Shown here piece after piece: positions 17,723 through 62,357 of a stretch of DNA of 64,000 nucleotides. The notes under the pieces are model-generated. The model ran no database searches and was not told the DNA's origin. It was given only the letters and a program-made list of their open reading frames with translations. Source of the stretch: Botryllus schlosseri (taxonomy: Eukaryota); contig CM119372.1 of NCBI GenBank assembly GCA_051294905.1, positions 16,122,001 through 16,186,000 of the forward strand, in the 5' to 3' direction. The first letter of the stretch is position 1, and every line of letters begins with the position of its first letter. The translations under genes and the position numbers were made by a program.

Positions 17723-19592
17723 CAGTGTAACTCACTACACAAATCAAGTTGAATCGTATTTGAATGTATTGATTCGACCCAACTCAAATCCTATTAACGC
17801 GATCTGTTGAATCGAACGTAACCTGAATATTACTGACGCCAACATTCACCATCATCGGATCATTCACACATTCCACGCCGCTGTTTTAACACTTATAGAA
17901 TCAATACCAACTATCTCTGACCCGATATTATTCAATCATTTTGGTAATTTGCCAACTTTAAATCCATTCGCGGGATGTACTAAAGGTAAATCCAAATAAT
18001 CCAGAATGAAATATTTGGACTTTGACATTGTGTGAATTGAAATAGGATTGACAAACATGACTACCAACTTTGATCCAGCCACATTTCAAACTCAAAAGAA
18101 TTATTCACAACATTAACAATTGTTAAAAATCTAGTTTCACTTACTTGATTATATCATTACAACTCACAAATTTGAATTAATTCATCCTGGTTGTATTCGT
18201 ATGCTCTATCTTTTTATTCAATTGTAAAGGTTGTTACTATTCTGAAGACAAAGTATTTACTAATCGGCGCATATACGATTTGACTTGGACATATTATATT
18301 TTGAGTATACGAGATTTGAATGTCTGAACAATAACTGAGAATTAATTTATCACAAATAAATCCGTAAAAGATATTGGGGTGTCAGCAACTCTGTACGGTC
18401 GTAGTTACAACCACATTAACTAATCTACCCAGGCAACTCGTCATGATCATTCCTGAAATCAACACAAACACGACCACTGACTTGAGTTAACCGCGAAACA
18501 CCATCAAGTTTTAAATCCGCTTGCAGCTGACGGATTATTCGAATACATCGATGAGGAATATTATTGAACTCGTCGGTATTGTTACTTCAACAAATTACAC
18601 CGACTGCGAAAGTTAATATCGAATGGTAAGACTTGATCACATATTTGTTGATCACAGACATGACGAAAAAAACATTACCGAGATTTTATAAACTAGTCAT
18701 ATTACTCTACACATCTATCAATATCAAAATGCGAGTCATCCAATTTTTCTACTAAAGTAACATTGCACATTCGAATTCGGTATAGTCATACAAATTGTAT
18801 TAAATCCAACATCAAAACAAAAGGAATTTTTTTTAGTTTATTGAAATCAAATCATTCGTCTTCGACTTGTGCTTTTCTAGATTACCCGCGACAATTCGTT
18901 TCGAGTGAGTTGTAACCAAAGTCAAGATATCTCTGTGTCCACAGATATGGAAGATGAATATAGCTAACACAATCACGAATCGACGTTTCAGAGTATTTCA
19001 CGGGTGTAATAAACTTGTTAGTGTCACCTATCTAAAAGTACGCACGCGTTCGATTTCCATACCGACTGTTGCGATGTTTAGGATTCACTTACAATAACCA
19101 CGGGTGAGGATTTAACATCAATGTCGTTACTGTCGGAATTTGCGACAGAGAATTGAAACATATGCACTTTACACAGTGTGAAAATATCACTTTGAGTATC
19201 GAGTACCGTTCGAAGCTAGCGATCAATTCTTAATCATTTCAGTAACTCCCCATTGTGCGTGCTAAATGTAAAATATCGCGAGGTTATACACTCTAAGACT
19301 TTGATTATTGTAAAAGTAAATTGTGATATGTTTGTTAGATGCATTCAATTCAACTAGAAGTGTCTAGTATCCAACACTCGTAATATCAAAAAAGTACTTG
19401 CTACACTGTTATTTGCTAAACGTGTTTTGCATTGTTGTTCATTTCTAGTATTGATTGTAATTGTTTTTGAACCCTCAAATAATAATTCCCGACATGAAAC
19501 TAAGCCGCCGAAAGTCGTTACCATCACAAAGAAACAATTTGCACGATGTTTACTAAATGTATCCTATAGTTAGGTGTACTGGAATTATTTGT

Positions 19593-19595
<3 letters not shown>

Positions 19596-19625
<30 letters not shown>
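19596..19625 (+). repeat. (CA)n microsatellite within left arm
   Basis: Direct reading; mirrored as (TG)n at ~26512-26540. Confidence 0.95.
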
Positions 19626-19627
<2 letters not shown>

Positions 19628-19680
19628 TCAGAGAAATTGGAAATTTTTCCGTTGTCATTCGCTAAAGTAAATGTCATCAC

Positions 19681-20304
19681 AATACTCTGTCACTAAAAGA
19701 CGTTACTTGGACGTGCTTGAATTCTAGACATAGTTCTGATTTACCCAACACAAGACCCAAGGACAACCCTAGTTTCAGCCGAACACAGATATCCAAAATA
19801 TCACACACTTCGCTATTCCTAAAGCACAAACACATGATACAAAATAATACTTGTTGTGTTGTTGCGGCATCATCACTTAACAATATCACCCTCAATACAA
19901 ATGATGTTTATGTGTAACATGCTATTGATTTGAACCACACCCACCTGACGGAAGAGGATTTACTCAATCTTTACAAAATGGATATTGACCAACATCACAT
20001 CACCGGATTGTATCTGTTTCGCTGGATACGAGTTATGTTAGTTTAACAGTAAACAAATTTCACCCTCTTGGATTATGAACTCAATGCGTTAGCAGTCATT
20101 CAATATTTTGTTTGTGTCAACTAGTTACTTGGTATGTTACTCCACAACTCTTACAAAAGTACGAAGGATATTAACATCGCACTAAGTAATTAACTTTACT
20201 CGATATTCTCGCATTACGAAACTAAAGAATGGTTGGTTAGACTCTACAAACTGTTTCGATATCACAAGACCTTTATTGTCCGAATGGGTGTTCATGTGTC
20301 TTAA
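19681..20304 (+). pseudogene. Probable decayed ORF of unknown function within the arm (mirrored on - strand at ~25833-26456)
   Basis: One frame stays protein-like for ~208 codons with five internal TAA/TAG stops (e.g. HAIDLNHTHLTEEDLLNLYKMDIDQHHITGLYLFRWIRVML). No homology recognised. Confidence 0.35.
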
Positions 20305-21289
20305 GAACCAAATAGTTCAACACAGCACTAGTACCAACAGAAACATCAGAGTTGTTTACACAAAAGTTTGTATGCGTGCAGTATGCGAATACCATGTGTA
20401 AGTCCAGCACAATTGTGGTATCCACCCGAGTTTAGTTAACACAATTTACGACACCGAGGTCGCGTCATCTTTCGTAAAACAACAAACCAACCAAGCCTTC
20501 AGGATATGTCCATGTCATAGCAATAAATCAGCTACTCCAACAACAGAGTACATATGTTTTTAGTTACGGTGCTTACATCTTACACACAAATCAATCTACT
20601 TTGCTAACAAAAAGTGCTGGGTCATCAAGTGATTACCCTAACAACAAAACAGCTAAACGTACTATCATACAAAATGGCCGTTATAGTCACCAACGGTACA
20701 TGGTACAAGTAACAAGTCTCGAGAATCCAGTTATTGAAAAAACATGAAAGTGTTTCTCCTGCGCCAAGTCGTTATGTTGACGAAAGCGTATATTGTAATA
20801 TCATGATCGATTTGCATTCGTCGGTCACAAAATGTCACTACTCTAAATAATTATTTTTCACTCAAACACAAACGCATACTTGTCGCCAATCGTTTTCATC
20901 AAGCACGAGTTCAAGAAACCTGCTACGACATGAATTGTTATTTTTTTTTATGTTGTGTAAATAGGTAATAATTAATTTTAGTAACACTATATCAACATCA
21001 TCTAGTTGCGCGAATAGATTTACACGTGGTCTTGTGGTTTTAATCGAAGTATACAGCACGGTCTAATGTAGAGTCATCTCTACTGTACAGCAACTCGGTA
21101 ATCGAAATGCATTAAAATTTAAACAACGATCTTGTTTCGTCGCACCAAAAATATGTTTACTATCGCGATACTCTGCACAGGACGTGTAAATCCTTTTCAC
21201 ACTCGTAATAGTATACCAACAGCTACCGGCGACAACGTTTAACAATACCAACGACACTAAAAAACGATACCTACCCAAGTAAAATTACC

Positions 21290-21885
21290 ATTTTCACCTG
21301 GAGGTCGGTCGTTACCCGAGTAGAAATACCATTGTCCTTTGGAAATTTATCGTATACCCAGTGTAACAATCCCCTTTTCACTTGGAAATATATTTTTGAC
21401 CTGGATAACAAACCCCTTTTCACTTGGAAATCTATTTTTGCCCTGGATAACAAACCTTTTTCACTTGGAAATATATTTTTTCTCTTGGTAACAAACCTTT
21501 TTCACTTGGAAATATATTTTTTCTCTGGTTAACAAACCTTTTTCACTTGGAAATATATTTTTTCTCTGGTTAACAAACCTTTTTCACTTGGAAATATATT
21601 TTTTCTCTGGTTAACAAACCTTTTTCCCTGAGCAACAAACCATTTTCACTTGGTGGTCCGTCGTTTACCCGAGTAAAAATATCATTTTCTTTTGGAGATC
21701 CGGCGTTTACCCAGTGTAACAATACATTTTCACTTGGAAAAATACTTTTACCTAGAGTAACTAATCATTTTCTCCTGGGTAACAAACCCTTTTCGTCTGG
21801 AAACTATCATTTACCTGAGTACCAATACAGTTTTCACTTGGAAATCTACCTTCTCCCTGGGTAACAATATCATTTTCGTTTTGAA
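21290..21885 (+). repeat. ~41-42-bp tandem repeat array (TTTTCACTTGGAAATATATTTTTTCTCTGGTTAACAAACCT)
   Basis: Homogeneous central units with degenerate flanking units. It has one more 41-bp unit than the mirrored array in the right arm. Confidence 0.92.
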
Positions 21886-23246
21886 AACTGACAACCACAC
21901 CCGACAATTTGATATTTTTGTATATTGTTACAACGAACAGTGCCAAAATATACACCAACAACGACCCCGATACATTTGTTTAATCAAATATTCACTTGTT
22001 CTGATTCATCCCATCAAAATCATTGGGTACTCGCATGCAATAACAATGTGCTGTTGTACATCGACATGTATGTTTTCGGAATTGGCGAATAAAGCGGTTT
22101 CCGATATGTCCGTGATGTCCGGGTTCGTGCTTTGGATTTTTCAGAGTCAGAATGTCTGAATAAAACACCTCATCGACTTTGGTAACTGGTTGATACATGG
22201 ATAATGAATTTATGTTCCCCATCGCGCTAACAACACCTGGTTACTTGTGAGTTTCCTCAGATCTGTTTACTATATTGTGTCTTTACTGGTCAATACATTT
22301 CGCTCCAGTCAGCTGAAACCGGATCACTAATATGAGAAAGTGTGTGAACCGGATCCGGATATTCACTCATGAACCAACGACCAATATTCAAGTAAACATG
22401 TTACAGACCGTGTTTTGTCTCCATGAAAAATACCAATGCATACACCATCACATCAAGTACGTCGCGATTGTTCACAAGTATTCGCGTAAACCAGGTGTAC
22501 ATACAATGTGTCGGTGTACAAACATCACGGAAAACAAATTCATGTTCTCAAGTCTCATCATGCGACGACTCTGTACATTCAATGTGGGCATAGATGACTT
22601 GGGGGACAGGCAAGCAGCCATATTTGGACGTAACATGGTCTTAGTATGAACCAACCTCCACCCAACTTGTGAAAAATCAATCTCACACGAGTACAACCCT
22701 TTCACGGGTTCACACCTTGATTTTGCAAGATTGTTCGGATTCTCAGGTAGACTTGCATCGTGATCAAGACCTCGACATAATCGTGTTGCGTAACTCGCTC
22801 AATCCCTGCGCATTGTTGGTCATAACCTGCTAACTTTTTCGCCGAGACCGCAGTGTTTCACCCGACATAATGTATTTGGCGATCACCATCGTTATCAATC
22901 TTTCACGCGATGAATATGTTAGATGTCGCTACTCCCACATAACGACTACAGATAAACATCGTGAGCAGTGACTCCACATTGAAATCGTAAACATGGACTC
23001 TCTGTGTGTGTGTGTGTGAATCTCGAGTTCGATTACGATTTGATAATGTAATCCGAGGTGAATCTCTGCGGGTCGAAGACAGATTTCGTGTTAATCACGC
23101 CACAAGAGGGTGCTGTCTCGTAATTCTACAGGTCAACATAAACCGCGGTTGGAAACTTTTGGTCTAGTTGATCCAGCTGCGTATTGAAACGGTGTACCCA
23201 CACAGACCATTGAGAAAACGTTGTCGTTACCTGACTATATCCACGA

Positions 23247-23528
23247 GTGAATATGGGACTACGCGTAACGTTCCATAGATTCCTTTGGCCCCACGCCGTG
23301 GTTTTACGACACAGACAAGATGCAGCGGTGGAAATATTGAAAATGAAAAACGATACCTTGGTGGCATTTGATTTGGATTTTACACCTGATGAACCATACA
23401 CTCGATTGGTACATTGGGATGACGACTCTATCATCGAGGTCGAGGGAAAAGAAATGTACAGATTTGTTGGTGTTGTGGATATTCAGCGAAAATCAGGGTA
23501 TATGGTTATTAATGGTTCGCATATTTGA
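23247..23528 (+). CDS. 93-aa ORF of unknown function in the palindrome spacer (possibly the 5' part of a longer decayed gene)
   Basis: Protein-like composition (DTLVAFDLDFTPDEPYTRLVHWDDDSIIEVEGKEMYRFVGVVDI). The same frame continues past a few stops into the right arm to ~23777. Confidence 0.4.
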   Translation: MNMGLRVTFHRFLWPHAVVLRHRQDAAVEILKMKNDTLVAFDLDFTPDEPYTRLVHWDDDSIIEVEGKEMYRFVGVVDIQRKSGYMVINGSHI

Positions 23529-24292
23529 CTGAGAATATATCGGTACGCATAATGCCCTGTTCATTGTATCATACCATGTGTCATCTATGCCCACATTGAA
23601 TGTACAGAGTCGTCGCATGATGAGACTTGAGAACATGAATTTGTTTTCCGTGATGTTTGTACACCGACACATTGTATGTACACCTGGTTTACGCGAATAC
23701 TTGTGAACAATCGCGACGTACTTGATGTGATGGTGTATGCATTGGTATTTTTCATGGAGACAAAACACGGTCTGTAACATGTTTACTTGAATATTGGTCG
23801 TTGGTTCATGAGTGAATATCCGGATCCGGTTCACACACTTTCTCATATTAGTGATCCGGTTTCAGCTGACTGGAGCGAAATGTATTGACCAGTAAAGACA
23901 CAATATAGTAAACAGATCTGAGGAAACTCACAAGTAACCAGGTGTTGTTAGCGCGATGGGGAACATAAATTCATTATCCATGTATCAACCAGTTACCAAA
24001 GTCGATGAGGTGTTTTATTCAGACATTCTGACTCTGAAAAATCCAAAGCACGAACCCGGACATCACGGACATATCGGAAACCGCTTTATTCGCCAATTCC
24101 GAAAACATACATGTCGATGTACAACAGCACATTGTTATTGCATGCGAGTACCCAATGATTTTGATGGGGTGAATCAGAACAAGTGAATATTTGATTAAAC
24201 AAATGTATCGGGGTCGTTGTTGGTGTATATTTTGGCACTGTTCGTTGTAACAATATACAAAAATATCAAATTGTCGGGTGTGGTTGTCAGTT

Positions 24293-24850
24293 TTCAAAAC
24301 GAAAATGATATTGTTACCCAGGGAGAAGGTAGATTTCCAAGTGAAAACTGTATTGGTACTCAGGTAAATGATAGTTTCCAGACGAAAAGGGTTTGTTACC
24401 CAGGAGAAAATGATTAGTTACTCTAGGTAAAAGTATTTTTCCAAGTGAAAATGTATTGTTACACTGGGTAAACGCCGGATCTCCAAAAGAAAATGATATT
24501 TTTACTCGGGTAAACGACGGACCACCAAGTGAAAATGGTTTGTTGCTCAGGGAAAAAGGTTTGTTAACCAGAGAAAAAATATATTTCCAAGTGAAAAAGG
24601 TTTGTTAACCAGAGAAAAAATATATTTCCAAGTGAAAAAGGTTTGTTACCAAGAGAAAAAATATATTTCCAAGTGAAAAAGGTTTGTTATCCAGGGCAAA
24701 AATAGATTTCCAAGTGAAAAGGGGTTTGTTATCCAGGTCAAAAATATATTTCCAAGTGAAAAGGGGATTGTTACACTGGGTATACGATAAATTTCCAAAG
24801 GACAATGGTATTTCTACTCGGGTAACGACCGACCTCCAGGTGAAAATGGT
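24293..24850 (-). repeat. Mirror copy of the ~41-42-bp tandem array
   Basis: CCAAGTGAAAA-anchored units; one unit fewer than the left array. Confidence 0.92.
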
Positions 24851-26509
24851 AATTTTACTTGGGTAGGTATCGTTTTTTAGTGTCGTTGGTATTGTTAAAC
24901 GTTGTCGCCGGTAGCTGTTGGTATACTATTACGAGTGTGAAAAGGATTTACACGTCCTGTGCAGAGTATCGCGATAGTAAACATATTTTTGGTGCGACGA
25001 AACAAGATCGTTGTTTAAATTTTAATGCATTTCGATTACCGAGTTGCTGTACAGTAGAGATGACTCTACATTAGACCGTGCTGTATACTTCGATTAAAAC
25101 CACAAGACCACGTGTAAATCTATTCGCGCAACTAGATGATGTTGATATAGTGTTACTAAAATTAATTATTACCTATTTACACAACATAAAAAAAAATAAC
25201 AATTCATGTCGTAGCAGGTTTCTTGAACTCGTGCTTGATGAAAACGATTGGCGACAAGTATGCGTTTGTGTTTGAGTGAAAAATAATTATTTAGAGTAGT
25301 GACATTTTGTGACCGACGAATGCAAATCGATCATGATATTACAATATACGCTTTCGTCAACATAACGACTTGGCGCAGGAGAAACACTTTCATGTTTTTT
25401 CAATAACTGGATTCTCGAGACTTGTTACTTGTACCATGTACCGTTGGTGACTATAACGGCCATTTTGTATGATAGTACGTTTAGCTGTTTTGTTGTTAGG
25501 GTAATCACTTGATGACCCAGCACTTTTTGTTAGCAAAGTAGATTGATTTGTGTGTAAGATGTAAGCACCGTAACTAAAAACATATGTACTCTGTTGTTGG
25601 AGTAGCTGATTTATTGCTATGACATGGACATATCCTGAAGGCTTGGTTGGTTTGTTGTTTTACGAAAGATGACGCGACCTCGGTGTCGTAAATTGTGTTA
25701 ACTAAACTCGGGTGGATACCACAATTGTGCTGGACTTACACATGGTATTCGCATACTGCACGCATACAAACTTTTGTGTAAACAACTCTGATGTTTCTGT
25801 TGGTACTAGTGCTGTGTTGAACTATTTGGTTCTTAAGACACATGAACACCCATTCGGACAATAAAGGTCTTGTGATATCGAAACAGTTTGTAGAGTCTAA
25901 CCAACCATTCTTTAGTTTCGTAATGCGAGAATATCGAGTAAAGTTAATTACTTAGTGCGATGTTAATATCCTTCGTACTTTTGTAAGAGTTGTGGAGTAA
26001 CATACCAAGTAACTAGTTGACACAAACAAAATATTGAATGACTGCTAACGCATTGAGTTCATAATCCAAGAGGGTGAAATTTGTTTACTGTTAAACTAAC
26101 ATAACTCGTATCCAGCGAAACAGATACAATCCGGTGATGTGATGTTGGTCAATATCCATTTTGTAAAGATTGAGTAAATCCTCTTCCGTCAGGTGGGTGT
26201 GGTTCAAATCAATAGCATGTTACACATAAACATCATTTGTATTGAGGGTGATATTGTTAAGTGATGATGCCGCAACAACACAACAAGTATTATTTTGTAT
26301 CATGTGTTTGTGCTTTAGGAATAGCGAAGTGTGTGATATTTTGGATATCTGTGTTCGGCTGAAACTAGGGTTGTCCTTGGGTCTTGTGTTGGGTAAATCA
26401 GAACTATGTCTAGAATTCAAGCACGTCCAAGTAACGTCTTTTAGTGACAGAGTATTGTGATGACATTTACTTTAGCGAATGACAACGGAAAAATTTCCAA
26501 TTTCTCTGA

Positions 26510-26544
<35 letters not shown>

Positions 26545-28414
26545 ACAAATAATTCCAGTACACCTAACTATAGGATACATTTAGTAAACATCGTGCAAAT
26601 TGTTTCTTTGTGATGGTAACGACTTTCGGCGGCTTAGTTTCATGTCGGGAATTATTATTTGAGGGTTCAAAAACAATTACAATCAATACTAGAAATGAAC
26701 AACAATGCAAAACACGTTTAGCAAATAACAGTGTAGCAAGTACTTTTTTGATATTACGAGTGTTGGATACTAGACACTTCTAGTTGAATTGAATGCATCT
26801 AACAAACATATCACAATTTACTTTTACAATAATCAAAGTCTTAGAGTGTATAACCTCGCGATATTTTACATTTAGCACGCACAATGGGGAGTTACTGAAA
26901 TGATTAAGAATTGATCGCTAGCTTCGAACGGTACTCGATACTCAAAGTGATATTTTCACACTGTGTAAAGTGCATATGTTTCAATTCTCTGTCGCAAATT
27001 CCGACAGTAACGACATTGATGTTAAATCCTCACCCGTGGTTATTGTAAGTGAATCCTAAACATCGCAACAGTCGGTATGGAAATCGAACGCGTGCGTACT
27101 TTTAGATAGGTGACACTAACAAGTTTATTACACCCGTGAAATACTCTGAAACGTCGATTCGTGATTGTGTTAGCTATATTCATCTTCCATATCTGTGGAC
27201 ACAGAGATATCTTGACTTTGGTTACAACTCACTCGAAACGAATTGTCGCGGGTAATCTAGAAAAGCACAAGTCGAAGACGAATGATTTGATTTCAATAAA
27301 CTAAAAAAAATTCCTTTTGTTTTGATGTTGGATTTAATACAATTTGTATGACTATACCGAATTCGAATGTGCAATGTTACTTTAGTAGAAAAATTGGATG
27401 ACTCGCATTTTGATATTGATAGATGTGTAGAGTAATATGACTAGTTTATAAAATCTCGGTAATGTTTTTTTCGTCATGTCTGTGATCAACAAATATGTGA
27501 TCAAGTCTTACCATTCGATATTAACTTTCGCAGTCGGTGTAATTTGTTGAAGTAACAATACCGACGAGTTCAATAATATTCCTCATCGATGTATTCGAAT
27601 AATCCGTCAGCTGCAAGCGGATTTAAAACTTGATGGTGTTTCGCGGTTAACTCAAGTCAGTGGTCGTGTTTGTGTTGATTTCAGGAATGATCATGACGAG
27701 TTGCCTGGGTAGATTAGTTAATGTGGTTGTAACTACGACCGTACAGAGTTGCTGACACCCCAATATCTTTTACGGATTTATTTGTGATAAATTAATTCTC
27801 AGTTATTGTTCAGACATTCAAATCTCGTATACTCAAAATATAATATGTCCAAGTCAAATCGTATATGCGCCGATTAGTAAATACTTTGTCTTCAGAATAG
27901 TAACAACCTTTACAATTGAATAAAAAGATAGAGCATACGAATACAACCAGGATGAATTAATTCAAATTTGTGAGTTGTAATGATATAATCAAGTAAGTGA
28001 AACTAGATTTTTAACAATTGTTAATGTTGTGAATAATTCTTTTGAGTTTGAAATGTGGCTGGATCAAAGTTGGTAGTCATGTTTGTCAATCCTATTTCAA
28101 TTCACACAATGTCAAAGTCCAAATATTTCATTCTGGATTATTTGGATTTACCTTTAGTACATCCCGCGAATGGATTTAAAGTTGGCAAATTACCAAAATG
28201 ATTGAATAATATCGGGTCAGAGATAGTTGGTATTGATTCTATAAGTGTTAAAACAGCGGCGTGGAATGTGTGAATGATCCGATGATGGTGAATGTTGGCG
28301 TCAGTAATATTCAGGTTACGTTCGATTCAACAGATCGCGTTAATAGGATTTGAGTTGGGTCGAATCAATACATTCAAATACGATTCAACTTGATTTGTGT
28401 AGTGAGTTACACTG

Positions 28415-29050
28415 ATGACTCCCACTTTATCAAACGATATGACATCGAACAGTGTCAACACTATGCAAGTCGGAGCAACTTCAAATTTTCACGTCGGCGT
28501 CAAATTCGTCTCATCACCCAAAAGAGGTGGCGTTAGCCAATATCTCAAAGGTATATTCATCGACGGCAATAACGAAGAGATATCTTTCACGTGTTTCAAT
28601 CGTGATTTGTTCGGGAACATTGAGAAAGCATTCACCAAACGAAAAAAACTCATGGTCAAATCCGGTTGGGTTCAAATTGATAAATTTACTGGAAAACCCG
28701 CTGTATTACTGAGACGGGCTTCGTCAGTAACTCTACATGGAAAATCGAGACATACGACTGAAGAATACCCATTATTGACCTGTGAATCGGTATACGGAAA
28801 TAAAGATGAATACGTCTCGATCGCCGCTACTTGTGTTTCTCGAGAGGAGAAGACGGTCAATTCTGGTGCCGGAAAGGAGTTGAAATTATACAGTTTTACA
28901 TTGAAGGATGATACTGGTGAGGTGGTTTTGGACCAATGGAACAAAGCCTCGCTCGTACCCGGGAAGAAATATCAACTCACTCGTGTTAAAAACTGTGTCG
29001 GCAGCTTGAAAATCGATTCGTTAACTAGACTTGTTGAATTGAAAGAATAG
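28415..29050 (+). CDS. 211-aa putative ssDNA-binding tandem OB-fold protein (right-arm copy)
   Basis: Intact ORF. Four clustered differences from the left copy were seen, at 28681, 28684, 28699 and 28712: three synonymous and one G>R. Confidence 0.72.
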   Translation: MTPTLSNDMTSNSVNTMQVGATSNFHVGVKFVSSPKRGGVSQYLKGIFIDGNNEEISFTCFNRDLFGNIEKAFTKRKKLMVKSGWVQIDKFTGKPAVLLRRASSVTLHGKSRHTTEEYPLLTCESVYGNKDEYVSIAATCVSREEKTVNSGAGKELKLYSFTLKDDTGEVVLDQWNKASLVPGKKYQLTRVKNCVGSLKIDSLTRLVELKE

Positions 29051-29559
29051 TTTGCATATTTGTATACCACAATACAATATTTCACGTAATATGTATGACC
29101 TATGTGATTCGACAACTGGGTTAGTGCAGTGTTGTTCTACTGATCGAGGTGTGAAAATTGCGCTATCGCGATGAGGTTGTGACTGTGAACAGCAGATTAT
29201 TCTGTAGGCGCGAAACAGCGAATAAGCCGAAAGTATTATTCAGGTGGCAATCAATAGCGAGGAAAGCGGTCATTTGACACGACTAAACTACGACATCATA
29301 TATCATAATTTACGATCAAACTATTTCACACTGACCGGTCTAGTGTAATAATCGATAGTAGCACACAACTGCACGGAAACAATTCAGCGCGCAGGTCATT
29401 CGGAATATAGGTCGCACTGCTTAATCCTCACAAGCCACGTTTCCGTTTGTGCGGTTATTGTTGGTGACTATTCAACACCACGCGAGAGATGCCTGAAAGT
29501 ACGAATCATCGCTGCATCCATAAGAACGCATGGCGAGTCACCACATATCGCGTAAGAAT

Positions 29560-29770
29560 ACATGGCACCTCACCACCCCCGCCATAAGAGATAAGGGTCA
29601 CCTCACCACCCCCGGTTTTCAGGCACCTCACCACCCCGCCCATAAGAGATAAGGGTCACCTCACCACCCCCGCCATAAGACACAATGGCACCTCACCACC
29701 CCCGCCATAAGAGATAAGGGTCACCTCACCACCCCCGGTTTTCAGGCACCTCACCACCCCGCCCATAAGA
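29560..29770 (-). repeat. Right subterminal G-rich repeats
   Basis: Seven perfect CACCTCACCACC cores, versus four on the left. Confidence 0.9.
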
Positions 29771-30019
29771 ACCCCATTGCGTCATGCGACCGATCTACTT
29801 AACTACTTCTAGGCGCCGAATTGACCAGCGCCGTATAGTCCAGTGCCCGCAGCTTGAGCCGCATGTATCAAGTATCAAAAAGACCTGCCGAGGAAAATAA
29901 TGAGCCCCGTGTCGAAATGCGAATTTGGAATCGCGTTCGTCTCTTAGAAGAAGATATTATTTTGATTTCGACTGGTGGCAAGTGATTCCACTATATCTGG
30001 AGCAACGACAATCTTTACC

Positions 30020-34845: not shown

Positions 34846-37800
34846 CTCATCTGTTGGTCTGAGTCACAGCTTCTTGTGATTTCGTCATAGTATGAATGAA
34901 AATCTCACGAAATTGAAAGGAGATCTGTATTATAAAGCCCGGCAAAAAGAGAGCTCGAATATCAATTTGTATGGACTGGAAACGGAAAGATCTTTCTGCG
35001 AAAAAGCGAGGAATCCAAAATAATCCACGTACACTCAATGGAAGTGCTGCAACGCCTTAAGTAGAAAATGCTAATGAACTTACTTATCATGTTGTATACG
35101 CTGAAGTAAAGAATGGCGACCCCAGAAACATCTGAGCAAAATCCCAATGACGAAGAAGATGGAAGCCTATTGTTTACCAACAACACTCAATGCAAGAAAC
35201 TTTTACCAAGTGAGCTGAAGCGAATTGGAAAAAAATCTACCATGATGGACCTAAATATCCGATCTCTCCAGAGACACCATACTGACCTTTCTACTCTATT
35301 ATCCTTAATGCAACAACCTCTCTGCATACTTGGAATCTCCAAAACACGTCTTGAAAGTAACCCACAAATCTAAATAGACTAGGGTTACCATATTTCTGTG
35401 ACCCAAATTCCGGACACTCTTGGGCCATATAATAACCAATATAAGTGACATAGAGCTGTCTCCAGCCATATTCTGCCATGATATCTCTGGCCATTTTCCT
35501 ATTTTATGAGAATTTGGTTTAAAACCTATTATATCTCGTCCATCTCATGCACTGCAAAGAGACTTGAGTAACCTGAACTACGACAGCCTCTTACAAGATG
35601 CATATGAAAAATTTGAGCAAGCGGCTACGACACCATGTGTCAACAGTAACAAATTGAACAAGAAATTCAGTAACTTTATTGAGGACATCCAGAGTTTGTT
35701 CGATTCACACGCTCCGATCAAAAGACATTCTCGACGACACCAAAAAATCAAATTGAAACCATGGCTCACACCTGGCATCCTTTGAGCAATAAAAACTAGG
35801 AATTTTTTGTATCAGAAGTTTATTAGAACAAAAAATGTACAAGATATGCTACGTCGCAAAGAATATGCCAAAAATTGTGTTCATTCAAGAAAAAAGCAAG
35901 AGAAGCATATTTCCGAAAATTATTTTCGATCTGTCATGGAAATCAAAGAGATACTTGGAAGATCATAAAAGGGTTAATCAATAACAACAAAACTTCTGCA
36001 CTCCCATATATGAAATGTGCTGTAAATGGTAGTACCATCAAAGAACAAAAGAATGTAGCAAACGAGTTCAACGACTTCGTCGCATCAATTGGTCCAAAGT
36101 TAGCTTCTACTGTTCCACCATCCGCAACGAAAAGGCAAGATTACTTGAGAAGAAATACGTCGTCAATGTTCCTGGAACCATCAACAGCGGATGAAGTGAA
36201 ACTATACATAGGCCTACTCTTAAATCTGCTAAAGCAACGGGACATGATCAAGTACCAAATAACCTCCTTAACATATTTGCAGGCCCACTGAGTGTTACAT
36301 TATCATATTACTTCAACAAATCGCTTGATCTCGGATGCTTTCCGAACTCCCTCAAAATAGGTAAAATAACCCTTTTCTACAAAGGAGGTTCAAGGTTCGC
36401 GACAAACAACTATAGGTCTGTTTCAGTTTTACCTGTTCTAGCAATTGTATTTGATAAACTTTTAGAAAGTAGGCTCCCTAGTTTTATTTCAAAATACAAA
36501 ATAATCAGCAATCACCAATATGGTTTTCGGGATCAACATTTTACTATTCATGCTATTCTTGAAATAATGACAGGATACTACGATGTACAATCAACCAACA
36601 GTTATGGTGTGGCTATCTCGCATGACCTCAAAAAGGTATTTGATACTGTCGACCATTCATTACTAATTGATAAGCTAGAATGTTATGGTGTACTGTACGT
36701 GGTAGTGCTCTCGAAATATTTCGTAATTATTTTACTGACCGACAACAATATACAGTCATCGGTCAAGAGAAATCTGACTATCGTGCTGTCTCCTGCAGTA
36801 TACCACAGGGGTCAGTTTTGAGGCTAACTTTGTTTCTATTGTATATTCATGATATAACTGCCAGTTCACAATTCGCCACTACCCTTTTTGCAGATGACAC
36901 TCACTTACTGCTATCCTCATCCAATAGTCAAAATCTGTTGATATCAACCGACAACCAACTTGAACTTATCAGCAACTGGCTCACATGTAACAAATTGTCC
37001 ATCAATGCTAGTAAGAGCCAAGTATTACCAATAGGCAAAGAAAAAAAGGAGAACAGAACTCTCCAATACTAATCCCAAATTAATAATGGCTGATCAAGCG
37101 ATGTGCTTTTGCAAATCAATGAAAGATCTAGGAATTTTTATTGACCATGACCTCAGTTGGAATACCCATACAAGTCATGTTTCGTCCAAGATCTTTCGCA
37201 ATACTGGTGTCTTGTGACGACTAAATAGAATTGTCCCTATGCCTACGCTCAGAAGTCTTTATTTCTCCATCGTTCACTGCCATTTGCAATATGGTATTAT
37301 TATGTGGCGATCTGCAACCCAAACTATTTTGAAAGCACTGCAAGTAGGGGAGATGTGGTACCGATGGATCACTGGGACCGAAAATACTTGTAAAATTCTC
37401 TATGATAATCCCATGATTACATTCCGTGAGCTTGTCTACAATTGCATGCTGGCAACATCTTTCCTCACATACAAAAAATTTCGACGTGCGCGAGCTATGG
37501 GGTCTCTGACAGATGTGTTTTGTTTTGGGGGGTGTAAACTAAATTTTGATCGACGCATACATTTTTCTCTGTAGCCTTTAGTACAAACAAACCAGCAATC
37601 ATTTTTAATGTGAAGTGTAGGGCTTGTATCAGGCTATATAATGGCACATATCATTTTATTCAATACCTCCCTTGAGCGGAATTTTTTTGCCAATTCATGT
37701 ATCAAATTCGTAGGGTGGGGACCGATGATACAGTAGCCAAATCAAGCAAAATAATCAAGCATACTAATCACGCAACAACTGACACATGCCTACGTACAGA

Positions 37801-42000: not shown

Positions 42001-45000
42001 AATCCACCCCGCTGGTCATGTGTGTTACCTGGACTTGAAAACTGGTTCAAGCTGACCTATGAGTCAAGGATCAGTAATTATGGTGAAATAGCACGCAACG
42101 ACAACCTATATGCAGCAGCAATCGACAATGAACTCACATAAGGCCGTGCTTGGTTCATAGTCTCTTTTACTTTGGTACAATTGCGTCCATGTTACAGGAC
42201 GGAAAGATACATAATATAACGTTTTAGTCCTTGCTGCATGGCATAGTACTGTATTTGAGGAATTACTATACTGATTTCAAGCCTCTATGTTTGTTCGTTT
42301 GTTTTTGGTATTCATGGTGTTTCGACTACATTGGTCATTTTACACCGGCCGATAGTCTTTTATATTTGATACCAGGCCGATAGTCTTAGATATTTGATTC
42401 CGTATTTACCGACTTGTAGTTGGGCCCACTTCTAGGCTTTTTATAAGACACCGCTTACGCGAATAGCAGCCTATATATGTGTGTTTACCAAGTAATACAT
42501 AATACAGTATTTGTTGAATCGTTCGGTATCGAATTACCGAACGGTGTACTTCTGACGGTGTAACTATGCCAACAGTGCCATCACTGCTACTTATATATTC
42601 CACAAATCGGTATGTAGCAAAATGTAAATTTTAACAATCAGTTGAAAATCATGAAAAACCATTATTAAACCCATCCTTAGCTATTTACGGGTGATAAAGA
42701 TTTTTTTCTTTTTTTTATATTTTACCTAATTTTTTACAAATTTGTCAAATTTAACAGCTTTTTTTCTTGGTTTCCCACAAGAGTTGAACTTCAACATTTT
42801 AACACATGTTATAAGAGACCTTGGCGAACATATTGGAAAAGAAATTGTTTGGTAACAACATAGTTCATAGATTTGTGAAATATTCCACAAAATGCCCTAA
42901 CTAAATACATAATTCACGAACGTGCAGAAACAGGTATTGGCGAATGCCTTCTATCGGTTTACTGCGGATTTGTCGCGGATAGCGCGAAAAAAATTGAAGT
43001 CAATGAATGATTTGGTCAATAAAAAGAAAATTCTTTTACCTCGTTTTGATTTCAACTATAGTGCACTAAAACCCTTCTCGGCCAAATAAGTTGTTGGGTT
43101 CTGCACAAGATCGTCTAGTATAGTCCTTGGATGCCAGGTCTTTATAAGAACCATCCGGCACCCCTATTCATAATAAAGCGTATTTTTACTAAGTGAAAAT
43201 CCTTGCTGTTTTTAGGAGTTGCTGTTGCAATTGTACCCAAAACAGCTCTACAAAACATGTCCAGCGCACGCTATTTCAAATTAGGCTGAATTAACCTACT
43301 CTGCGTATCGCTGCGTATCGCATTCGTACTACTGTTTACTCGGATTGCCAGAGCGGGATTACTCGGTGCCGACTTCCGACCATTTCAACGACGGAGCATA
43401 TCCATATCGAAAGTTTTGGCCAACCATCAACTGTCGTTTTTGACCTAGGTTTTTATCAGCGGTATTAGAGTTATTTGAATTAATCCACGTCAGAAAAAGT
43501 AACAATTATTAATGATTTTCATCCGCATTCATCAGGATTTTCTTCCGCACCATTCGCACCATGTTCGTCATTCATACTGCAAAGTTTTTTTATACGCACA
43601 AGTGCGTACCATCCCAAAGGTTGAAAAGCACTGCAATACAATATACCCATCAATTCATTCTCGAGATACAATTGCAACCTGCTTCAATTGTTGACGAGGT
43701 ATATAAATGTACAAATTATATCCGTTCGATTCAAGTTATATAACTGGGTTGGTTGAGGTGAGCACTGAGCACTCAATTACGAGAGATACCTACATTGCTA
43801 TTACGTTACCACTAGTTTGCGACAACATGAGCTGATCAATTCGTTTGCGGTCAATTTATTAGGGATATAACAATGGAGGACCTATAAAACGCAAAATCAC
43901 AGGTCACATCAGCGTATCGCGAATATAATCCGAATATATACTAGATTCACTGATTTAGTCGACTTCGATTACTGGATGACTTGAAATTGACTCGTAAATT
44001 TTGCTCCGACTCACCAGTTAATCCCCATTTCTCAAACACCGATTCAAGTCAAGTCAAAGTCAAGTCAAGTCATACACTGACTTGGCGGGTAATTCAAAGT
44101 CGGATCGCTTGGAATGTAAATTACAGCGCCCTGTGGCAAAATGTAAATTGAGAACCTAATTGGAAGATGAAAGCTGGGTATCATTATCGTCATCGAGAGA
44201 TAATGTCGGCTCTGGAGAGCGTATACACAGTAGCCTACCTCTTGCTAAATGATAGTTCCTAAATCCATAGCGAGACGTAAAATCGTACGTCCATCCTCCA
44301 TTTTCCTCTATCCACTTTCGTCTTGCAGTCGTACCAGCAAACAGCAGACTCTTGTTTCGTTGGCTTTTCCTAACTTAAATCTCAGCGTCAAATACAACAG
44401 TAACAGTAGCGATTTAAGTAACAGCGGAATTGGAAACTGAATAATGAACAACAGGGCCTTTTGGTCAGTTATCAATCGTAATTTACGACCATGTAAAAGA
44501 TACCCCCACTTTCTTATAGCATGTATGACTGCGGCTGCTTCTTTTTCGACAGCAGGATAATTTAGTTCACTTTTAGCAAATGTTCGTGTTGCAAATGCTA
44601 CAGGTCTACCTCGCTGGCTGAGAATAGCAGCAATAGCGTTGTTAGACGCATCACATTCAATTTCAAATGGTTCAAATTCGTTAATATAACAAAGGGATGC
44701 TTTTCATAAAGTTTTCCTTTAGAACATTGAATGAGATTAGGGCAGGCACATTCCCCCCACTCAGTGGAAAAACCGAATTGCTAAGCATTGGTTCGATTTT
44801 ATCAGAAAAGCTTGGAATCCACATTGAATAATATGCGAACATACCCAAGATCCCTTTCATCTCTTTATCCGATTTAGGGGGTGGCAACTCAATCAACGGT
44901 TTCAGATGATCTGGGTCTGGTTTAATGGATCCGTGCGACACCAGATGGTCCAATAGACGCAATTCACTCACGGTATAGACGGATTTGTCCTCGGTCAACG

Positions 45001-46515
45001 TTAGTCGACTATCGGATGCGGCTTTGAGGAAAGCTTGAAGTCTCTCGTCTTGTTCGACGGCATCTTTACCGAATATGGCGATGTTGTCCAAGTAAGCCAG
45101 AGTCCCCTTCAAACCGTAGTCGTCGATGAACGAATCGATAAAACGTTGGAAAGCAGCCACTCCATTGGTGATGACGAAGGCAACCTGCAAAACTGATAAA
45201 GGATGCCGCAAGCTTCAAAGGCTGTAAACGGCTTGTCAGATGAAGTTACCGGGACTTGGTGATAAGCCGACTTCATATCAATAGTCGAATATACTTTACC
45301 TTTCGATACTTCGTTTAGGACGATAGTCTCCATTTTTGGAAAGGGTACGCGTCAAACGGAGTATACCTGTTTACGGTTTGCGAATAATCCATGACAAGTC
45401 TTTTCTTGTGCCTGGAATCCTTCGAAACCAATACTTGAGCACGCCAAGGACAACGAGAAGGCCCAATTATTCCCTCTTCGAGTTACCGATTAACTTCGTT
45501 CTTGATGAACGATTGATCTTCGTGACTGTAATTTATTGACGGAGTGGCGATCGGCTTGCAATTAGAAACTAGGAAATGAAATAGCTGAGAGGTTCTGCCT
45601 CAGCAGGGGACGAAGCGCACGATCGACTTTGTATTGTCAACGGTTCTTCGTTTCCGTCAAACTCGATGATGACTGATGACTTCATTGTGCTTCTTCATGA
45701 AATCATGACCAAGAATTACATCAGCGCACAAATCTTTAACCACCCCGAATGTGATACCCACGTAGTTTCGAGATAGCATTTCGAAAGAAACAGTAAAGGT
45801 GCCGGATACTTCAGCGGTCGCTGTCTTGGACGCGAGTGATATTGTGGTGGGCTGACCTCGTGGCAGGAATTCTAGTTTAATAGCTAGTAACTCGTCCATA
45901 TAATTTTCGAAGTAGCTAGAGTCTAACTAAACGCCCACAAGTAATTGGTGAATTTTATCTGAGCATGACGCACGCCAGGGACAATTAGGGACTCCGGCTA
46001 GAAGCATGCTGGCGGTCGCTCGGATGTCATATGAACGAGGGGATCGACATACCTTTACAAAATGCCCCTTTATTTCGCATTTCAGGCACTCGACGTCCTT
46101 TGCAGAACATTATCGCTTGTCTGCCACATGAGATCCACCGCAGAAAATCCATGTGCGCAGTAATCTCAGTGCTCCAGGCTATTTTTTTTTATAGCGGCGC
46201 TAGAATCTGTCCCGTGCTCCTGATCCCTTTGCCGAGCTGCTGCAATTTCCGTAGAAGTGACGGTATCAGACGAAGGAGTGGTGACATTGTACGAGCTTGC
46301 GAACAACTTGGCTCTTTCCAATGTGGCGCAGTCTGGGAGGCTTTTGCATAGTTAACTCATCGCATTCCAGTAATCTCTGTCGAATTGCCACGACCTCAGC
46401 CCAATGATGAAAGCGTCTCTTACAGTTTCCTATTTATGCTTTTGAGCATTTACCGCCATAAAGTTAAAATCTTTAGACAATGCCATTAATTTTCTGTAAA
46501 ATTCTGGCACGTTAA

Positions 46516-57420: not shown

Positions 57421-60400
57421 TTCCATTTAAGGGCTATTAAGGCAGAGGTTCCTAAACTTTTTATACCGTGACCCAAATCAGAGTTTTAGTTGAAACTCGC
57501 GACCCAAGCTTCACAATTCAAAATGGATGCATTCTTAATGTCAGCATGCTTCGTTTCTACGGGCATGTATGACAGAGGTCGCTCAGACAACCCATCAAGT
57601 GCTCGCAACGCAGTTCTATGAAACATGCCCTGTGACGCACATGATTTCAAATTGGAGTGCATTTTCTCTTTGTGGGTCACATATGTACTTACTGCGGGGC
57701 TTAGATTGCAAGGACGGAAATATTGGGTACCGACCTTTTTGACGGCCGATATATCCCTTTCGAAGGTTTGGGCCAATCAGCGATCATTTGGGAACCACAC
57801 TTTGCCCGGCCGTTTGTTGCGCAAAACGTCATGTTTTCATATTTCCCAGCCCGGAAAGGGACGGACGCGAAATATCTGTGTCTAATAGTCCTTCACCATC
57901 TCGTTGCACGCCCCCAGACTAAAGCATAACAACGGTCTCCGACGGTGATGGACTGCAGGCCTACTAAGAGTAGGCTATACGTTATTTCAAAATTGCGATT
58001 ACAGCTAGATTCATTTCTGAAAATGAGACGTGTTCAAAATAAATCGGGTGCGGTAGTTAGGCCTCACCAATTCTCTCTCTCTACCCTGTCCAAATAATAC
58101 CCGCGCCAAATAGAGCTTTCCAGAAAAATCAATGTCAGACAAATTGTATCCTAACATCAAAAAAATTTGTATAATACAAGGTTCGGCACATTTCCTTGAT
58201 CAAGCCATATCATCGTAACCACTTTTCTTCGTCTCTTATTTGGCTATGTCCTAACTATCCACAGTGGAACGCAGGTGGTGCGAATTTTTTTTATTTTGTT
58301 GCAAGATATGCAACAAATATTACATGGATAATAAAAAATCGCTCTAGCGCGGTCGCGAGTCGCGGCCCAAATTTATGCCCGGGTCGCGACTGCGACACAT
58401 ACCTTCAAGAACCCCGTTCTAAAGTGTGGATTACAAGGGTAGAATTTTGAGTCACCACGTCACCAGAGCGAACAGTAAATATATATGTAATATTTATTGG
58501 ATTTTTTCGACAAACTTTCTTCAGGGGGATGGGTTTACACATCCAAAGTCACTATAACCAAAATGACAAGCGGGACTCGCAAAAATGTGGCTTGATCATG
58601 TAAATATGCCGACATCTGTGTTACACAAATTTGTCCGAATTCATGACAAGATTTGTCCGGCTGGTTCTTTGGAAATCACAGTCGACACCGTTGGGATACT
58701 TCAGTGTAGAGGTGTTCAACTAACGCATGCAGGTCTATGAATCACGTTCATTTCGAGGCTAATCCCTTCTGCGTCGAGACACATGAAGGCGTAAAGCAGG
58801 GGTCTCAAACTCAAATGTGCTTGCGGGCCAATTTCCTAGTTTTTGATGCAGAATCAAGTAGAAGTACACAATGCCTTTCCAGTGGGTCATATTTCGACGG
58901 GACCTTGCAGGCTGACATTCCACACACATCGTGAAATTGCGATTTACTATAGTAGCCATCAACGAATGACGTGAGGAATCACATTATTTACCTGTGCAGA
59001 AAATTGTTGTACTTGGTGGGGAGTACGCACAATTTTCCGAAATTATGATACATAGACTCCATGCAAAAGGAGAAATGCGTCATGTCATCATAAAAGGTGT
59101 CCCGTTATAATTTTGTAACTTATGACGGACATTTGACATGTGACAATCCACAATTATTTATAGGTGGAGCCTTTTTGTAGTTAACAAAGATTGATTTGAT
59201 ATCACAGCATTTGAGGAAGGCAGCCTAATCCAGAATCCTAGTATACTCCTGGTTATAGTAGGGTATCAACCATGTCATTGCCCAAATCAAATTAAAATAG
59301 TGGTAAATTTACCTTTGGTTATTTGAGCAGATAAATACCAACGTAAATATAACAATGAATGTGCCGTAGTTGTAGAAATATCCAGTCGCTGAGCAATACT
59401 TTGGTGTTACAGCGGTGGAGCGTAGGCCTATATCACTTTGTCACAATAAATTAACGATAATGAAATGGATAAAGGTACGAAAGATGACCCAAGATGTAAC
59501 TAACTTTACATCAAGAGACAACAAAATGCCAATGGTTGCTAAAATGACTTGCGAAAAATAGCAAAATACGCCACGCAGGCTACGACCTTTTGATTTATTA
59601 TATAGTAGCAACGCGAATAGTATGTTGCGTCCGTGGTTGCAACCAAGTCAATGCGTCGCGAGTCGCAAGTCCGTCTATGACTTTAACGTCATTTAAATTT
59701 TATCACCGAGTCAGTCCGAGTCCGAATCATTTTACAAAAGGTCGCGTTCAAGTCCAAGTTACAATTTTCAGTCACGAATCATCTATGGGTCCTGTTTTAA
59801 CATTATTAATTGGCAATGTGCCGTAAAAGCAGATCCATAACGAATCGCAGTGTTTGAAAATGATGTGATCGTGAAGTTTTATGAGTTATCTCAGGTTTTT
59901 GAAGCAAATTTGGTGTACATTCCAAGTTTTCGCTTTCAAATAATGATAAAAAAGAAATAGATCCTTTAAATATAGTCGAATATTTGATAATCTGAAGTTC
60001 CGACGTGGGCCGCACAAAATGCTCTAGCCGGCCGCGTATTTGATACCCCTGGCGTAAAGCTTTGGCCAACATACTGCTGGAAAAGTGCGATGTGAAAAAG
60101 TTGACGGTGACTAAACCTTGGCCAAAAACGACCATCGTTGATTGGCCAAAACTTTCTATATTGATGTGCTCGGTCGTTGAAATGGTCGTCACTCGTCACC
60201 GAATAGTCTTGTCCTCGCAATCTGAGTACGAAGCGTCCTGCAACGCCCAAAGAAAAATAATTCTCCTAATTTGATATCGCGTGCGTCGAACATGCTTCGT
60301 TGATCTGTGTTGCGTACAATTAATGTCTGCCCGTTCTCCATGTCATACATGCCCGGAAAATCGTATGATACTAATGTTAAAAATGCATATTTTTTAGCTG

Positions 60401-60974
60401 AGAAGCTTTGGTCGGGATATGCCGCTAAAACCTTTGTATCTGTCGGACAGCATTTGCGACTCGCGGAAAATACGGTGTATTTTGTATAGGAGGGTTGTAT
60501 AGTTAATTTTATGACCTGGTCATCTTGTGCACAACCCAACAATTTATTTAAAAGGATTTTAGTGCACTAGAGTTGAAATAAAAAGCAGAAAATAAAATTG
60601 AACTTTTAAAGAGACACTTGATGGCCTAAACCGGTAGCTTACTTGTTGAACATCCGAGCAAAATATTGATAAGTGTCTTCATTTTCTTTTTGTACAAAAA
60701 TTTTCGGTTGATTTGTGCGAATGAATTTTTTTTCGTCAAAAAGTGCGAATGGTGCTGAAAAGAGTTGAAAAGCCCTAAAATACAGCATTTCAAAATGCTT
60801 TACTTGGCCTTCTTCCGATATCTCAAATCAGATCGCGGGTTGCAAAATATCACCGCACGGGTCGCATGTTGGTGACCCCTGGATTATAACATACTTTTTT
60901 CTATTCATAAACATAGCATATAGCCGTAGTTCGACTGTTTAGTGTGGCTTAAAAAGTTGAAGACTCCTGTGAAT

Positions 60975-61250
60975 ATGAGTACACAAGTATACGTCTCCGT
61001 CGAATACTGTGGCAGTTGAGGTTACGAAGTATTCTTCGTTGAGCTCCAGGCCGCCATAAAGAAGGAATTTCCGAACATTCAACTCATTGGGAAAGTCGGT
61101 CGCCTTGGCTCATACGAAGTGTCCATTAATGGAAAATTATTCTACTCAAAATTGCAAACGGACGCATTTCCAGAAGACAAGGATGTTATCGATGCCATCA
61201 GGCATGTTTGCAATCGAGGGGTGGTCATTCCTATTGATGGATGCCAGTAA
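60975..61250 (+). CDS. MIEN1: Rdx-family selenoprotein, MIEN1/SelW2-like (91 aa, Sec encoded by TGA at 61017-61019)
   Basis: MSTQVYVSVEYCGSUGYEVFFVELQAAIKKEFPNIQLIGKVGRLGSYEVSINGKLFYSKLQTDAFPEDKDVIDAIRHVCNRGVVIPIDGCQ*. It has the CxxU motif and the GxFE(I/V)x(I/V)NG..SKL...FP signature of the Rdx (SelW/T/H/V, MIEN1) family. The frame is open on both sides of the TGA and a SECIS lies downstream. The subfamily label is by recognition. Confidence 0.9.
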
Positions 61251-62093
61251 ACGTCGCCACCTCATACATGCATATCCAATTCACTCGTTGCTTCACTGTC
61301 ACTTAGTTTTCAGCTCTTGTAATGTGTTTGTATCACCAATAACCCGAATAGCCCATATTGTGATATAATTGTCTAGTTGTAGGTGACATATTGAGATATA
61401 TTACTTTGTAGGTCAATTGAACCTCAGGTATAGGAGGTACTGTCGTCGGTGATCCGGGAAATGTATTCTGTTTCATCACTAGCGTCGCATTTGACACGAG
61501 ATGTGTCTTAGAAATTTAATATGCATTGTATAGCAGGCGTGTGCAACCATATTTACGTTTTGATGTTTCCCCTTCACTTCATATTAAGCTCAAGAATACC
61601 AGACATAGCCAAATTATAAACCCGATTCTCAGTCAACATTGGCACTTCTACGTGGATAGCACAATTGTTCTCCCACATCTTGGCCCGCCGGCGCCGGTTG
61701 ACCACCCCTGTTTTATGTTTTGCTGTTAGTTTCCGTTTACCGACAGTGTTCAAAGCTACTTAAAAATTTTATCTGGCAGTGACTGGTCCGGATTTAAATA
61801 ATCATGTTATGTTTTAACTTTACTCATTACGGTTTGCAAATACGAGAATTATTGCCTTTCAATACGGACTTATCCTATTTAAAATGGTCGGCTCGTAGCA
61901 ATAAAATAATGAGAAGCCTACATATGTGCATCACTTTGTTTAAGGCGTGTTTTTTTCAGTAAACAGTAATAGGGTTATCTTGCGCACTATTTGTGGTCAT
62001 TCAGAGTTATTTTTCACTGCATAGACATCTGCCATTTATTTGAGATTATGGACAATTGTCAGGTATGTCCGTTGCGATCGTTATTTCAAGTTC

Positions 62094-62166
62094 AATTGGG
62101 TATTACATGACGTCATCGTTGTAAATCGCTACTCCAACGATATCTGAATCTATAACATACTCAGTT
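62094..62166 (+). promoter_or_regulatory. Eukaryotic SECIS element
   Basis: Helix I AATTGGGTAT/ATACTCAGTT. Core ATGA (62107-62110) with TGA (62145-62147). Helix II GTCATCGTTG/CAACGATATC. Apical AAA (62123-62125) lies 12 nt after ATGA. ATTAAA poly(A)-signal variant at 62183-62188. Confidence 0.8.
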
Positions 62167-62269
62167 TAATCCTACTTTGAACATTAAAATAGCAATTGCT
62201 GAAAATCGTGCATATATTTTATTGTCATCGTGTACACAGAGATAAAGACGTGAAAGAGAAACATGAAAT

Positions 62270-62357
62270 GGCAGGGCAGGGCAGGGCAGGGCAGGGCAGG
62301 GCAGGGCAGGGCAGGGCAGGGCAGGGCAGGGCAGGGCAGGGCAGGGCAGGGCAGGGC
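62270..62357 (+). repeat. (GGGCA)n pentanucleotide microsatellite
   Basis: Direct reading, ~17 perfect units. Confidence 0.97.

Follow-up and report, generated by a model that had tools for sequence, protein, structure and literature searches.

The selenocysteine (Sec)-bearing proteins SelW2/SELENOW2 form the sister group of Rdx12/MIEN1 (PMC3316567; PMC13134290) and occur in invertebrates, cyclostomes, fish and amphibians (PMC13134290; PMC3316567). A 2026 paper assigns every invertebrate member of the SELENOW2/MIEN1 group to the SELENOW2 branch (PMC13134290), and one to three SelW genes have been counted in each of six invertebrates (PMC3473315). The ascidian Ciona intestinalis has two, SelW1 and SelW2, the former carrying its whole reading frame and a SECIS in one exon (PMC2874816). 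Both the existence of invertebrate SELENOW2 and the routine misannotation of UGA-containing genes are already in print (PMC13134290, PMC2874816, PMC3473315). For MIEN1, the redox potential of the CxxC motif has been measured at -225 mV (PMC3527542), and attachment to the membrane depends on prenylation of the terminal CVIL (PMC6738349).

Here, we analysed a 64-kb stretch of the genome of the ascidian Botryllus schlosseri (the window), whose plus-strand segment 60975-61250 encodes a 91-aa protein labelled P0001. The explanation that accounts best for the data, and which we consider very probable, is a functional single-exon SELENOW2-type (Rdx) selenoprotein gene, in which Sec would be incorporated by means of a hairpin in the 3' region and whose product would be soluble, the membrane anchor having probably been lost once.

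An Rdx reading frame with an in-frame UGA

The coding sequence (60975-61250, +) opens with an ATG at 60975-60977, carries a TGC (Cys12) at 61008-61010 and a TGA as codon 15 at 61017-61019, and closes with a TAA at 61248-61250; these positions, the open frame and the GCQ end all agree with a preliminary description made from the letters alone. Reading the TGA as Sec, as the translation and alignments suggest, gives 91 residues with a Cys-Gly-Ser-Sec redox motif (C-G-S-U, 61008-61019, +) and the GCQ-stop end. The frame is shut upstream by an in-frame TAG at 60927, and an A stands at position -3 of the ATG. The gene, which the same description had noted as missing from its ORF track, is absent from the list of ATG-start ORFs of at least 100 aa, and the 76-aa piece that follows the TGA is its only trace in the stop-to-stop ORF list. 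Were Sec not inserted, the message would yield just a 14-residue peptide.

P0001 belongs to the Rdx family (SelW/SelT/SelH/MIEN1), scoring 61.3 bits against the Pfam Rdx profile PF10262 (cut-off 22.6, E 1e-16) and 66.3 bits against TIGR02174 (curated threshold 34.2). Its search among solved structures gave three matches in total at E <=1, with MIEN1/C17orf37 (PDB 2ljk) best at E 2.8e-20 and mouse SelW (2npb) at 2.9e-6. In the alignment, the TGA is matched to the second Cys of the MIEN1 CxxC and to the corresponding residue of mouse SelW; UGA15 hence occupies the Cys/Sec column of the Rdx homologues, with similarity on both sides. The Rdx motif initially read in this frame was found with its CxxU and the segment following it, but this segment reads GSYEVSING, a Tyr standing in place of the Phe of GxFE, as it also does in the three closest relatives.

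An AlphaFold model of P0001 (mean pLDDT 88.7) predicts strands at residues 6-11, 36-41, 47-51 and 54-58 and helices at residues 18-31 and 68-81, corresponding to a minimal thioredoxin-like fold with the CxxC/U motif after strand 1. When this model was submitted to Foldseek, the top matches were all Rdx proteins, MIEN1 (2ljk) coming first with a TM of 0.79 and SelW-related structures next, the identity to SelW being 28% at this stage. Judged by sequence, P0001 is nearer MIEN1/SELENOW2 than SELENOW, a placement that is based on scores because the trees presented below include no named SELENOW row; the named matches among its relatives are MIEN1. Strict orthology with SELENOW2 is putative, since the deep forks of these trees allow other placements, and no neighbouring host gene for synteny was found among the frames scanned in the 64-kb window.

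By established selenoprotein chemistry, Cys12 and Sec15, located where helix 1 begins, would form a redox pair comparable to the CxxC of MIEN1 and cycle between a selenenyl-sulfide and the reduced form; P0001 would thereby work on cysteines of proteins as a small thiol oxidoreductase. A role directed at protein thiols, resembling that of SELENOW, is the best guess.

Transcription and the SECIS candidate

Four of 24 listed sequencing runs were mapped on 58660-62260, namely X20 (a bulk run, about 6% of its reads being used), X1 (whose status as RNA is a guess), X18 (single-cell) and X24. The depth of X20 is 1.6-15 in all bins of 60838-62168 and below 1 in all bins of 58902-60716, with a depth of 2 in the repeat-like bin that precedes the gene, and X1 provides a gap-free contig of 1307 nt (60810-62116) which stops inside the SECIS hairpin. 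X18 leaves the coding region uncovered and has a depth of 0-0.2 at 61564-61926, ahead of a pile about 10 deep at 61927-62168 whose second mates lie on the plus strand; with 3'-end chemistry, such a pile is read as a sense transcript ending near the ATTAAA at 62183. Coding cover is almost nil in X24. The gene is transcribed through the SECIS region (X20, X18, X1), and RNA reads span about 60840-62170 without a joint, at low depth and with no single read linking the coding sequence to the hairpin. The continuity of coding sequence and hairpin (62094-62166) on one transcript, which the preliminary description had proposed to check, is seen as unbroken short-read cover and a 3' pile at the hairpin, but not in any one molecule spanning both. 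None of the joints or indels listed for the four runs, where a joint needs three reads, falls inside the gene, and the jointless cover over 60975-61250 bears out a coding region free of introns.

The 5' region (60840-60974, +), delimited by sequence and RNA cover, includes the in-frame TAG at 60927 as well as a T-rich run with three AG at about 60895-60930, a putative acceptor that could be used for trans-splicing. The 3' UTR of about 0.95 kb (61251-62210, +) has X20 depth in every bin and is traversed by the gap-free X1 contig, its end being estimated from the ATTAAA and from read depth. The ATTAAA itself (62183-62188, +), just past the SECIS, is the probable polyadenylation signal according to the sequence and the X18 pile. 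An AATAAA located upstream of the SECIS (61900-61905, +) would, if used, give a SECIS-less message; sequence and X18 depth were both considered, and this end is not evidently used, since X18 depth ahead of it is 0-0.2.

The SECIS candidate (62094-62166, +), delineated by an Rfam SECIS_1 match below cut-off, a pattern scan and the register of its motifs, starts 844 nt past the stop codon. It combines a helix I with 10/10 positions paired (62094-62103/62157-62166), a core in which A-UGAC (62107-62111) faces UGAA (62145-62148) with tandem G.A/A.G, a helix II with 8/11 positions paired (62112-62122/62134-62144) and an AAA (62123-62125) at the loop base. The hairpin anticipated at these positions is thus present, with the RUGAN core, the AAA and the NGAN correctly spaced. 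The distance from the UGA to the core, 1088 nt, falls within the range of 207-5207 nt given for mammals (PMC3316567). Following established selenoprotein biology, the hairpin would act as a SECIS and recruit the Sec machinery, UGA15 then being read as Sec.

A different possibility is a functional gene in which some other element recodes UGA15, or in which UGA15 is decoded as a different residue, the hairpin at 62094 being incidental. The Rfam score lends itself to this reading: in a 121-nt search SECIS_1 was the best of five matches and was covered over all 64 model positions, but at 16.8 bits against a cut-off of 35 (E 0.55), and a 5-kb scan gave no SECIS match. A pattern scan set up after the candidate had been seen found five other matches in 128 kb, i.e. 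comparable patterns arise here at a rate of roughly one in 21 kb of strand, and a first scan, which required a closing pair at most 3 nt from the core, missed the hairpin while reporting 17 other weak matches in 128 kb. Free folding of the candidate is likewise unexceptional (z -1.43; 21/200 shuffles as good), and UGA read as a residue other than Sec has been reported for insect SPS1 (PMC4561486). Against this, the hairpin lies in the 3'-terminal part of the transcript on the right strand, with all motifs in register, and is the only match of the pattern scan in the 1010-nt 3' region, shuffling of which produced any match in 19/2000 cases and an equally stable one in 1/2000. Moreover, the three differences listed for X24 avoid paired and motif positions, one of them turning a U.U into a G.U (chance about 0.08). 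We regard this alternative as very unlikely. The X24 reads are peculiar in that twelve of them lie over the SECIS alone (62091-62150) with the same three differences and almost no cover elsewhere in the gene; they may come from a divergent allele, a related species, or a second gene or copy with this SECIS.

The preferred reading, that of a functional SELENOW2/MIEN1-group gene with a recoded UGA as the preliminary description had it, is sustained by the profiles, the alignment of the UGA, transcription through the SECIS and the relatives, Sec insertion being presumed from established selenoprotein biology.

Relatives, constraint and the C-terminal tail

A search of representative proteins returned 245 relatives at E 0.001, the best 150 of which were used. 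Three of them, P0002-P0004, were left out of all counts, giving 147 aligned relatives; these long proteins (4119, 2192 and 820 aa) contain 17, 10 and 9 stretches matching parts of the Rdx query, either tandem Rdx-like repeats or an artefact. Opposite C12/U15, these 147 relatives show C..W in 49 cases and C..C in 41, the motif being not aligned in 38 and different in 19; a W facing U15 would reflect a TGA read through by gene callers. A Cys stands fourth from the end in 60 of these 147. For P0001 itself, a word search of a large protein collection gave a single candidate and none at E 1e-10.

Tails were classified on a wider set of about 265 collected relatives, in which vertebrate MIEN1 is over-represented. 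Among the 139 that look full-length, 90 end with a CaaX box (27 of them Sec-type), 21 are short, seven hydrophobic and 21 of other kinds. Of 60 Sec-type relatives whose tails were classed, 27 carry CaaX, which is thus widespread among Sec-type proteins rather than restricted to mammalian MIEN1; several separate groups lack it. P0001 has none, as first described: its tail (61221-61250, +), shortened by comparison with those of its relatives, ends Cys-Gln-stop with the Cys second from the end, and extends 25 residues past the FP motif versus 30-36 in CaaX-bearing relatives. P0001 would accordingly appear soluble, not membrane-tied like prenylated MIEN1, because it has no CaaX, signal peptide or membrane helix and its Cys is second from the end, given that MIEN1 relies on its prenylated CVIL.

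Three unnamed Logan proteins are the closest relatives. P0270 and P0271 (87 aa; 56 and 54% identical to P0001) are devoid of CaaX and end at residue 87, P0001 being four residues longer, and P0162 (97 aa; 55% identical) carries a CaaX. For all three, the stops and the W-for-TGA are presumed from the protein sequences. A 40-row tree, built from hand-picked rows with the tail and the Sec column left out, groups P0001, P0270 and P0271 with support of 96/87 and places the CaaX-bearing P0162 as their sister at 95/89, other CaaX-less groups being found elsewhere; a quick tree of 102 rows has the same shape. The loss of the anchor is thus probably old and shared, since P0270 and P0271 have no CaaX and an almost identical end and the next relative, P0162, keeps its own. 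In AU tests, three alternative positions of P0001 gave p 0.32 (next to P0162), 0.067 (next to vertebrate MIEN1) and 0.053 (next to the other short forms); because no alternative is rejected, a single shared loss is favoured and two losses are possible. On this basis, the anchor was probably lost once, in the ancestor common to P0001, P0270 and P0271. The earlier suggestion of a lineage-specific non-prenylated form holds in so far as P0270 and P0271 make a conserved CaaX-less lineage with P0001, at a lesser certainty.

A spliced last exon that has escaped notice could also supply the CaaX, in which case the gene would be a functional selenoprotein gene whose main product is prenylated. The abundance of CaaX ends among full-length-looking relatives (90/139, including 27 Sec-type), a weak GT at 61247, a pyrimidine-rich AG at 61312-61313 and the three reads required for a joint call at a local depth of 3-10 all leave some room for such an exon. 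On the other hand, no joint is listed in the gene for the four runs and the contig runs gap-free across the stop; the G at 61313 is an A in 4/4 X20 reads and in X1; the 371 donor/acceptor pairs up to 62260 yield 23 Cxxx endings, none of which resembles a family tail; and P0270 and P0271 stop at nearly the same place. We give a hidden CaaX exon hardly any credit and retain a single-exon gene without an anchor. At about 61330-61376, the 3' UTR encodes a tail-like peptide in the same frame, past two stops; it was considered as a relic of a lost CaaX and discarded, since 26/300 shuffles score as high.

The tails of more distant relatives vary as well. P0019, P0042, P0183, P0215 and P0269 are Sec-type proteins in which a hydrophobic, membrane-helix-like tail replaces CaaX, and as P0019 and the P0042 group are not joined in the trees, there may have been more than one swap of the anchor. 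Tailless Sec-type proteins of 80-83 aa (P0208, P0209, P0213, P0216, P0220-P0222 and P0224) form a well-supported group of their own and represent another loss of CaaX. As a tentative proposal, to which we grant somewhat less than an even chance, SELENOW2 may have split in the sea-squirt lineage into an anchored CaaX copy (P0162 type) and a soluble copy that kept Sec (P0001, P0270 and P0271), as one case of a wider, undescribed and repeated dropping of the prenyl anchor, or its swap to a C-terminal membrane helix, in the SELENOW2/MIEN1 family. If so, such copies would form natural pairs in which to test how membrane location affects the Rdx redox motif.

The protein is under constraint. With a conservation of at least 70% over 36 outgroup rows as the limit, P0001 keeps 19 of 21 conserved columns, and the changes on its own branch fall in 1/19 conserved versus 11/28 variable columns (p 0.015). 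Differences to P0270, P0271 and P0162 similarly affect 2-3 of the 21 conserved columns versus 28-32 of 56 elsewhere, and of four listed coding SNPs three are synonymous and one gives Ile38Thr. Since own-branch changes avoid conserved columns, the gene is unlikely to be a decaying pseudogene, which speaks against the neutral divergence that had been raised as a concern.

These data bear on a transcribed processed pseudogene, in which a retrocopy of a CaaX parent would have lost the end of its tail and be drifting, the UGA and the hairpin being no more than a legacy of that parent. Introns are absent here at sites where relatives have them: SelW genes are described as having their first splice site in common (PMC3828610), and vertebrate isoform models break after EYC and after FPYEKD, at points unbroken in P0001. 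The window is also gene-poor and retroelement-rich, read depth is low and the SECIS score is weak. However, the frame has stayed intact with the nearest relatives about 45% diverged, the substitutions respect the family-conserved columns (19/21), the short tail is common to P0270 and P0271, and neither a poly(A) remnant (at most 11 A in the 20 nt past the ATTAAA) nor a convincing target-site duplication (one 8-nt flank match only) was found. A processed pseudogene is accordingly very unlikely, and a functional gene remains the preferred reading. The retro-derived origin advanced earlier likewise finds no backing in these two marks at the locus, and no second Rdx copy exists within the 64-kb window. 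Old retrogenes lose their poly(A) and target-duplication marks. An old retroposition of the P0001 gene is plausible and would be ordinary, an intronless retro-derived SPS2 being described in two ascidian families (PMC4561486) and 96 retrogenes being listed for Ciona (PMC5470649).

The surrounding window and comparison with known systems

A Pfam scan of 251 of the 276 frames of at least 62 aa in the window (18 in one palindrome arm and seven others were left out) returned, beyond the Rdx piece, reverse-transcriptase/RNase H fragments and one IreB match below cut-off. Broken LINE-like and LTR-type reverse-transcriptase/RNase H remnants lie at 35827-37571 (+) and 44311-45926 (-). A near-perfect palindrome of 13.6 kb occupies 16240-29812, with arms (16871-21588 and 24549-29266) that are 100% complementary, and may be an assembly artefact. 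Each arm contains a 211-aa ORF of OB-fold, RPA-like type (17087-17722, minus; 28415-29050, plus; Atlas scores 0.93-0.95), for which Pfam gave no match. For another protein of the window than P0001, the Atlas cluster is dominated by Chordata, a weak sign in keeping with a sea squirt. Nearer the gene, a short repeat at 58797-58848 collects reads from other copies, loose ends being present there in each of the four runs; a further repeat, indicated by loose ends at 60783, immediately precedes the 5' end (about 60783-60870). A (GGCAG)n microsatellite at 62270-62357, preceded by a purine-rich run, lies about 80 nt past the ATTAAA.

This work corrects an annotation gap, the P0001 gene being invisible to standard ORF calling, and leaves unchanged how selenoproteins are thought to work. 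Judged by the titles and abstracts listed, our literature search retrieved no paper on CaaX loss in the SELENOW2/MIEN1 family; the loss of the anchor would be modestly new if the same animal also has a CaaX paralogue. Because the role of MIEN1 in cell migration reportedly needs prenylation, an anchor-less selenoprotein offers a ready comparison of redox activity and membrane targeting.

Among known systems, SELENOW2 shares with P0001 the Rdx fold, a CxxU with a UGA-coded Sec, a SECIS in the 3' UTR (here a candidate) and a closer proximity to MIEN1 than to SELENOW; unlike SELENOW2 relatives, 27 of 60 of which in the Sec-type class have a CaaX, P0001 has none, its tail is 5-11 residues shorter and its coding sequence consists of one exon. 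Amniote MIEN1 (C17orf37/Rdx12) has CxxC in place of the CxxU of P0001, and also an N-terminal extension of 20 residues and a geranylgeranylated C-terminal CVIL, P0001 being devoid of both the extension and a CaaX. SELENOW (SelW1, 2npb) resembles P0001 in its size of about 90 residues and its CxxU, and is not known to have a CaaX. It is probably the nearest match in how P0001 works, as a soluble redox protein, although the sequence match is much weaker (E 2.9e-6; 28%) and, in the alignment with mouse SelW, the segment with FP that characterises the SELENOW2/MIEN1 group is missing from SELENOW. Ciona SelW1 and SelW2, compared by description only, are likewise ascidian SelW-family selenoprotein genes, but for Ciona SelW1 two SECIS are described, with an intron lying further down (PMC2874816). 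The P0001 gene is thus ordinary for the SELENOW2/MIEN1 group save for its anchor-less tail, which is common to two close relatives.
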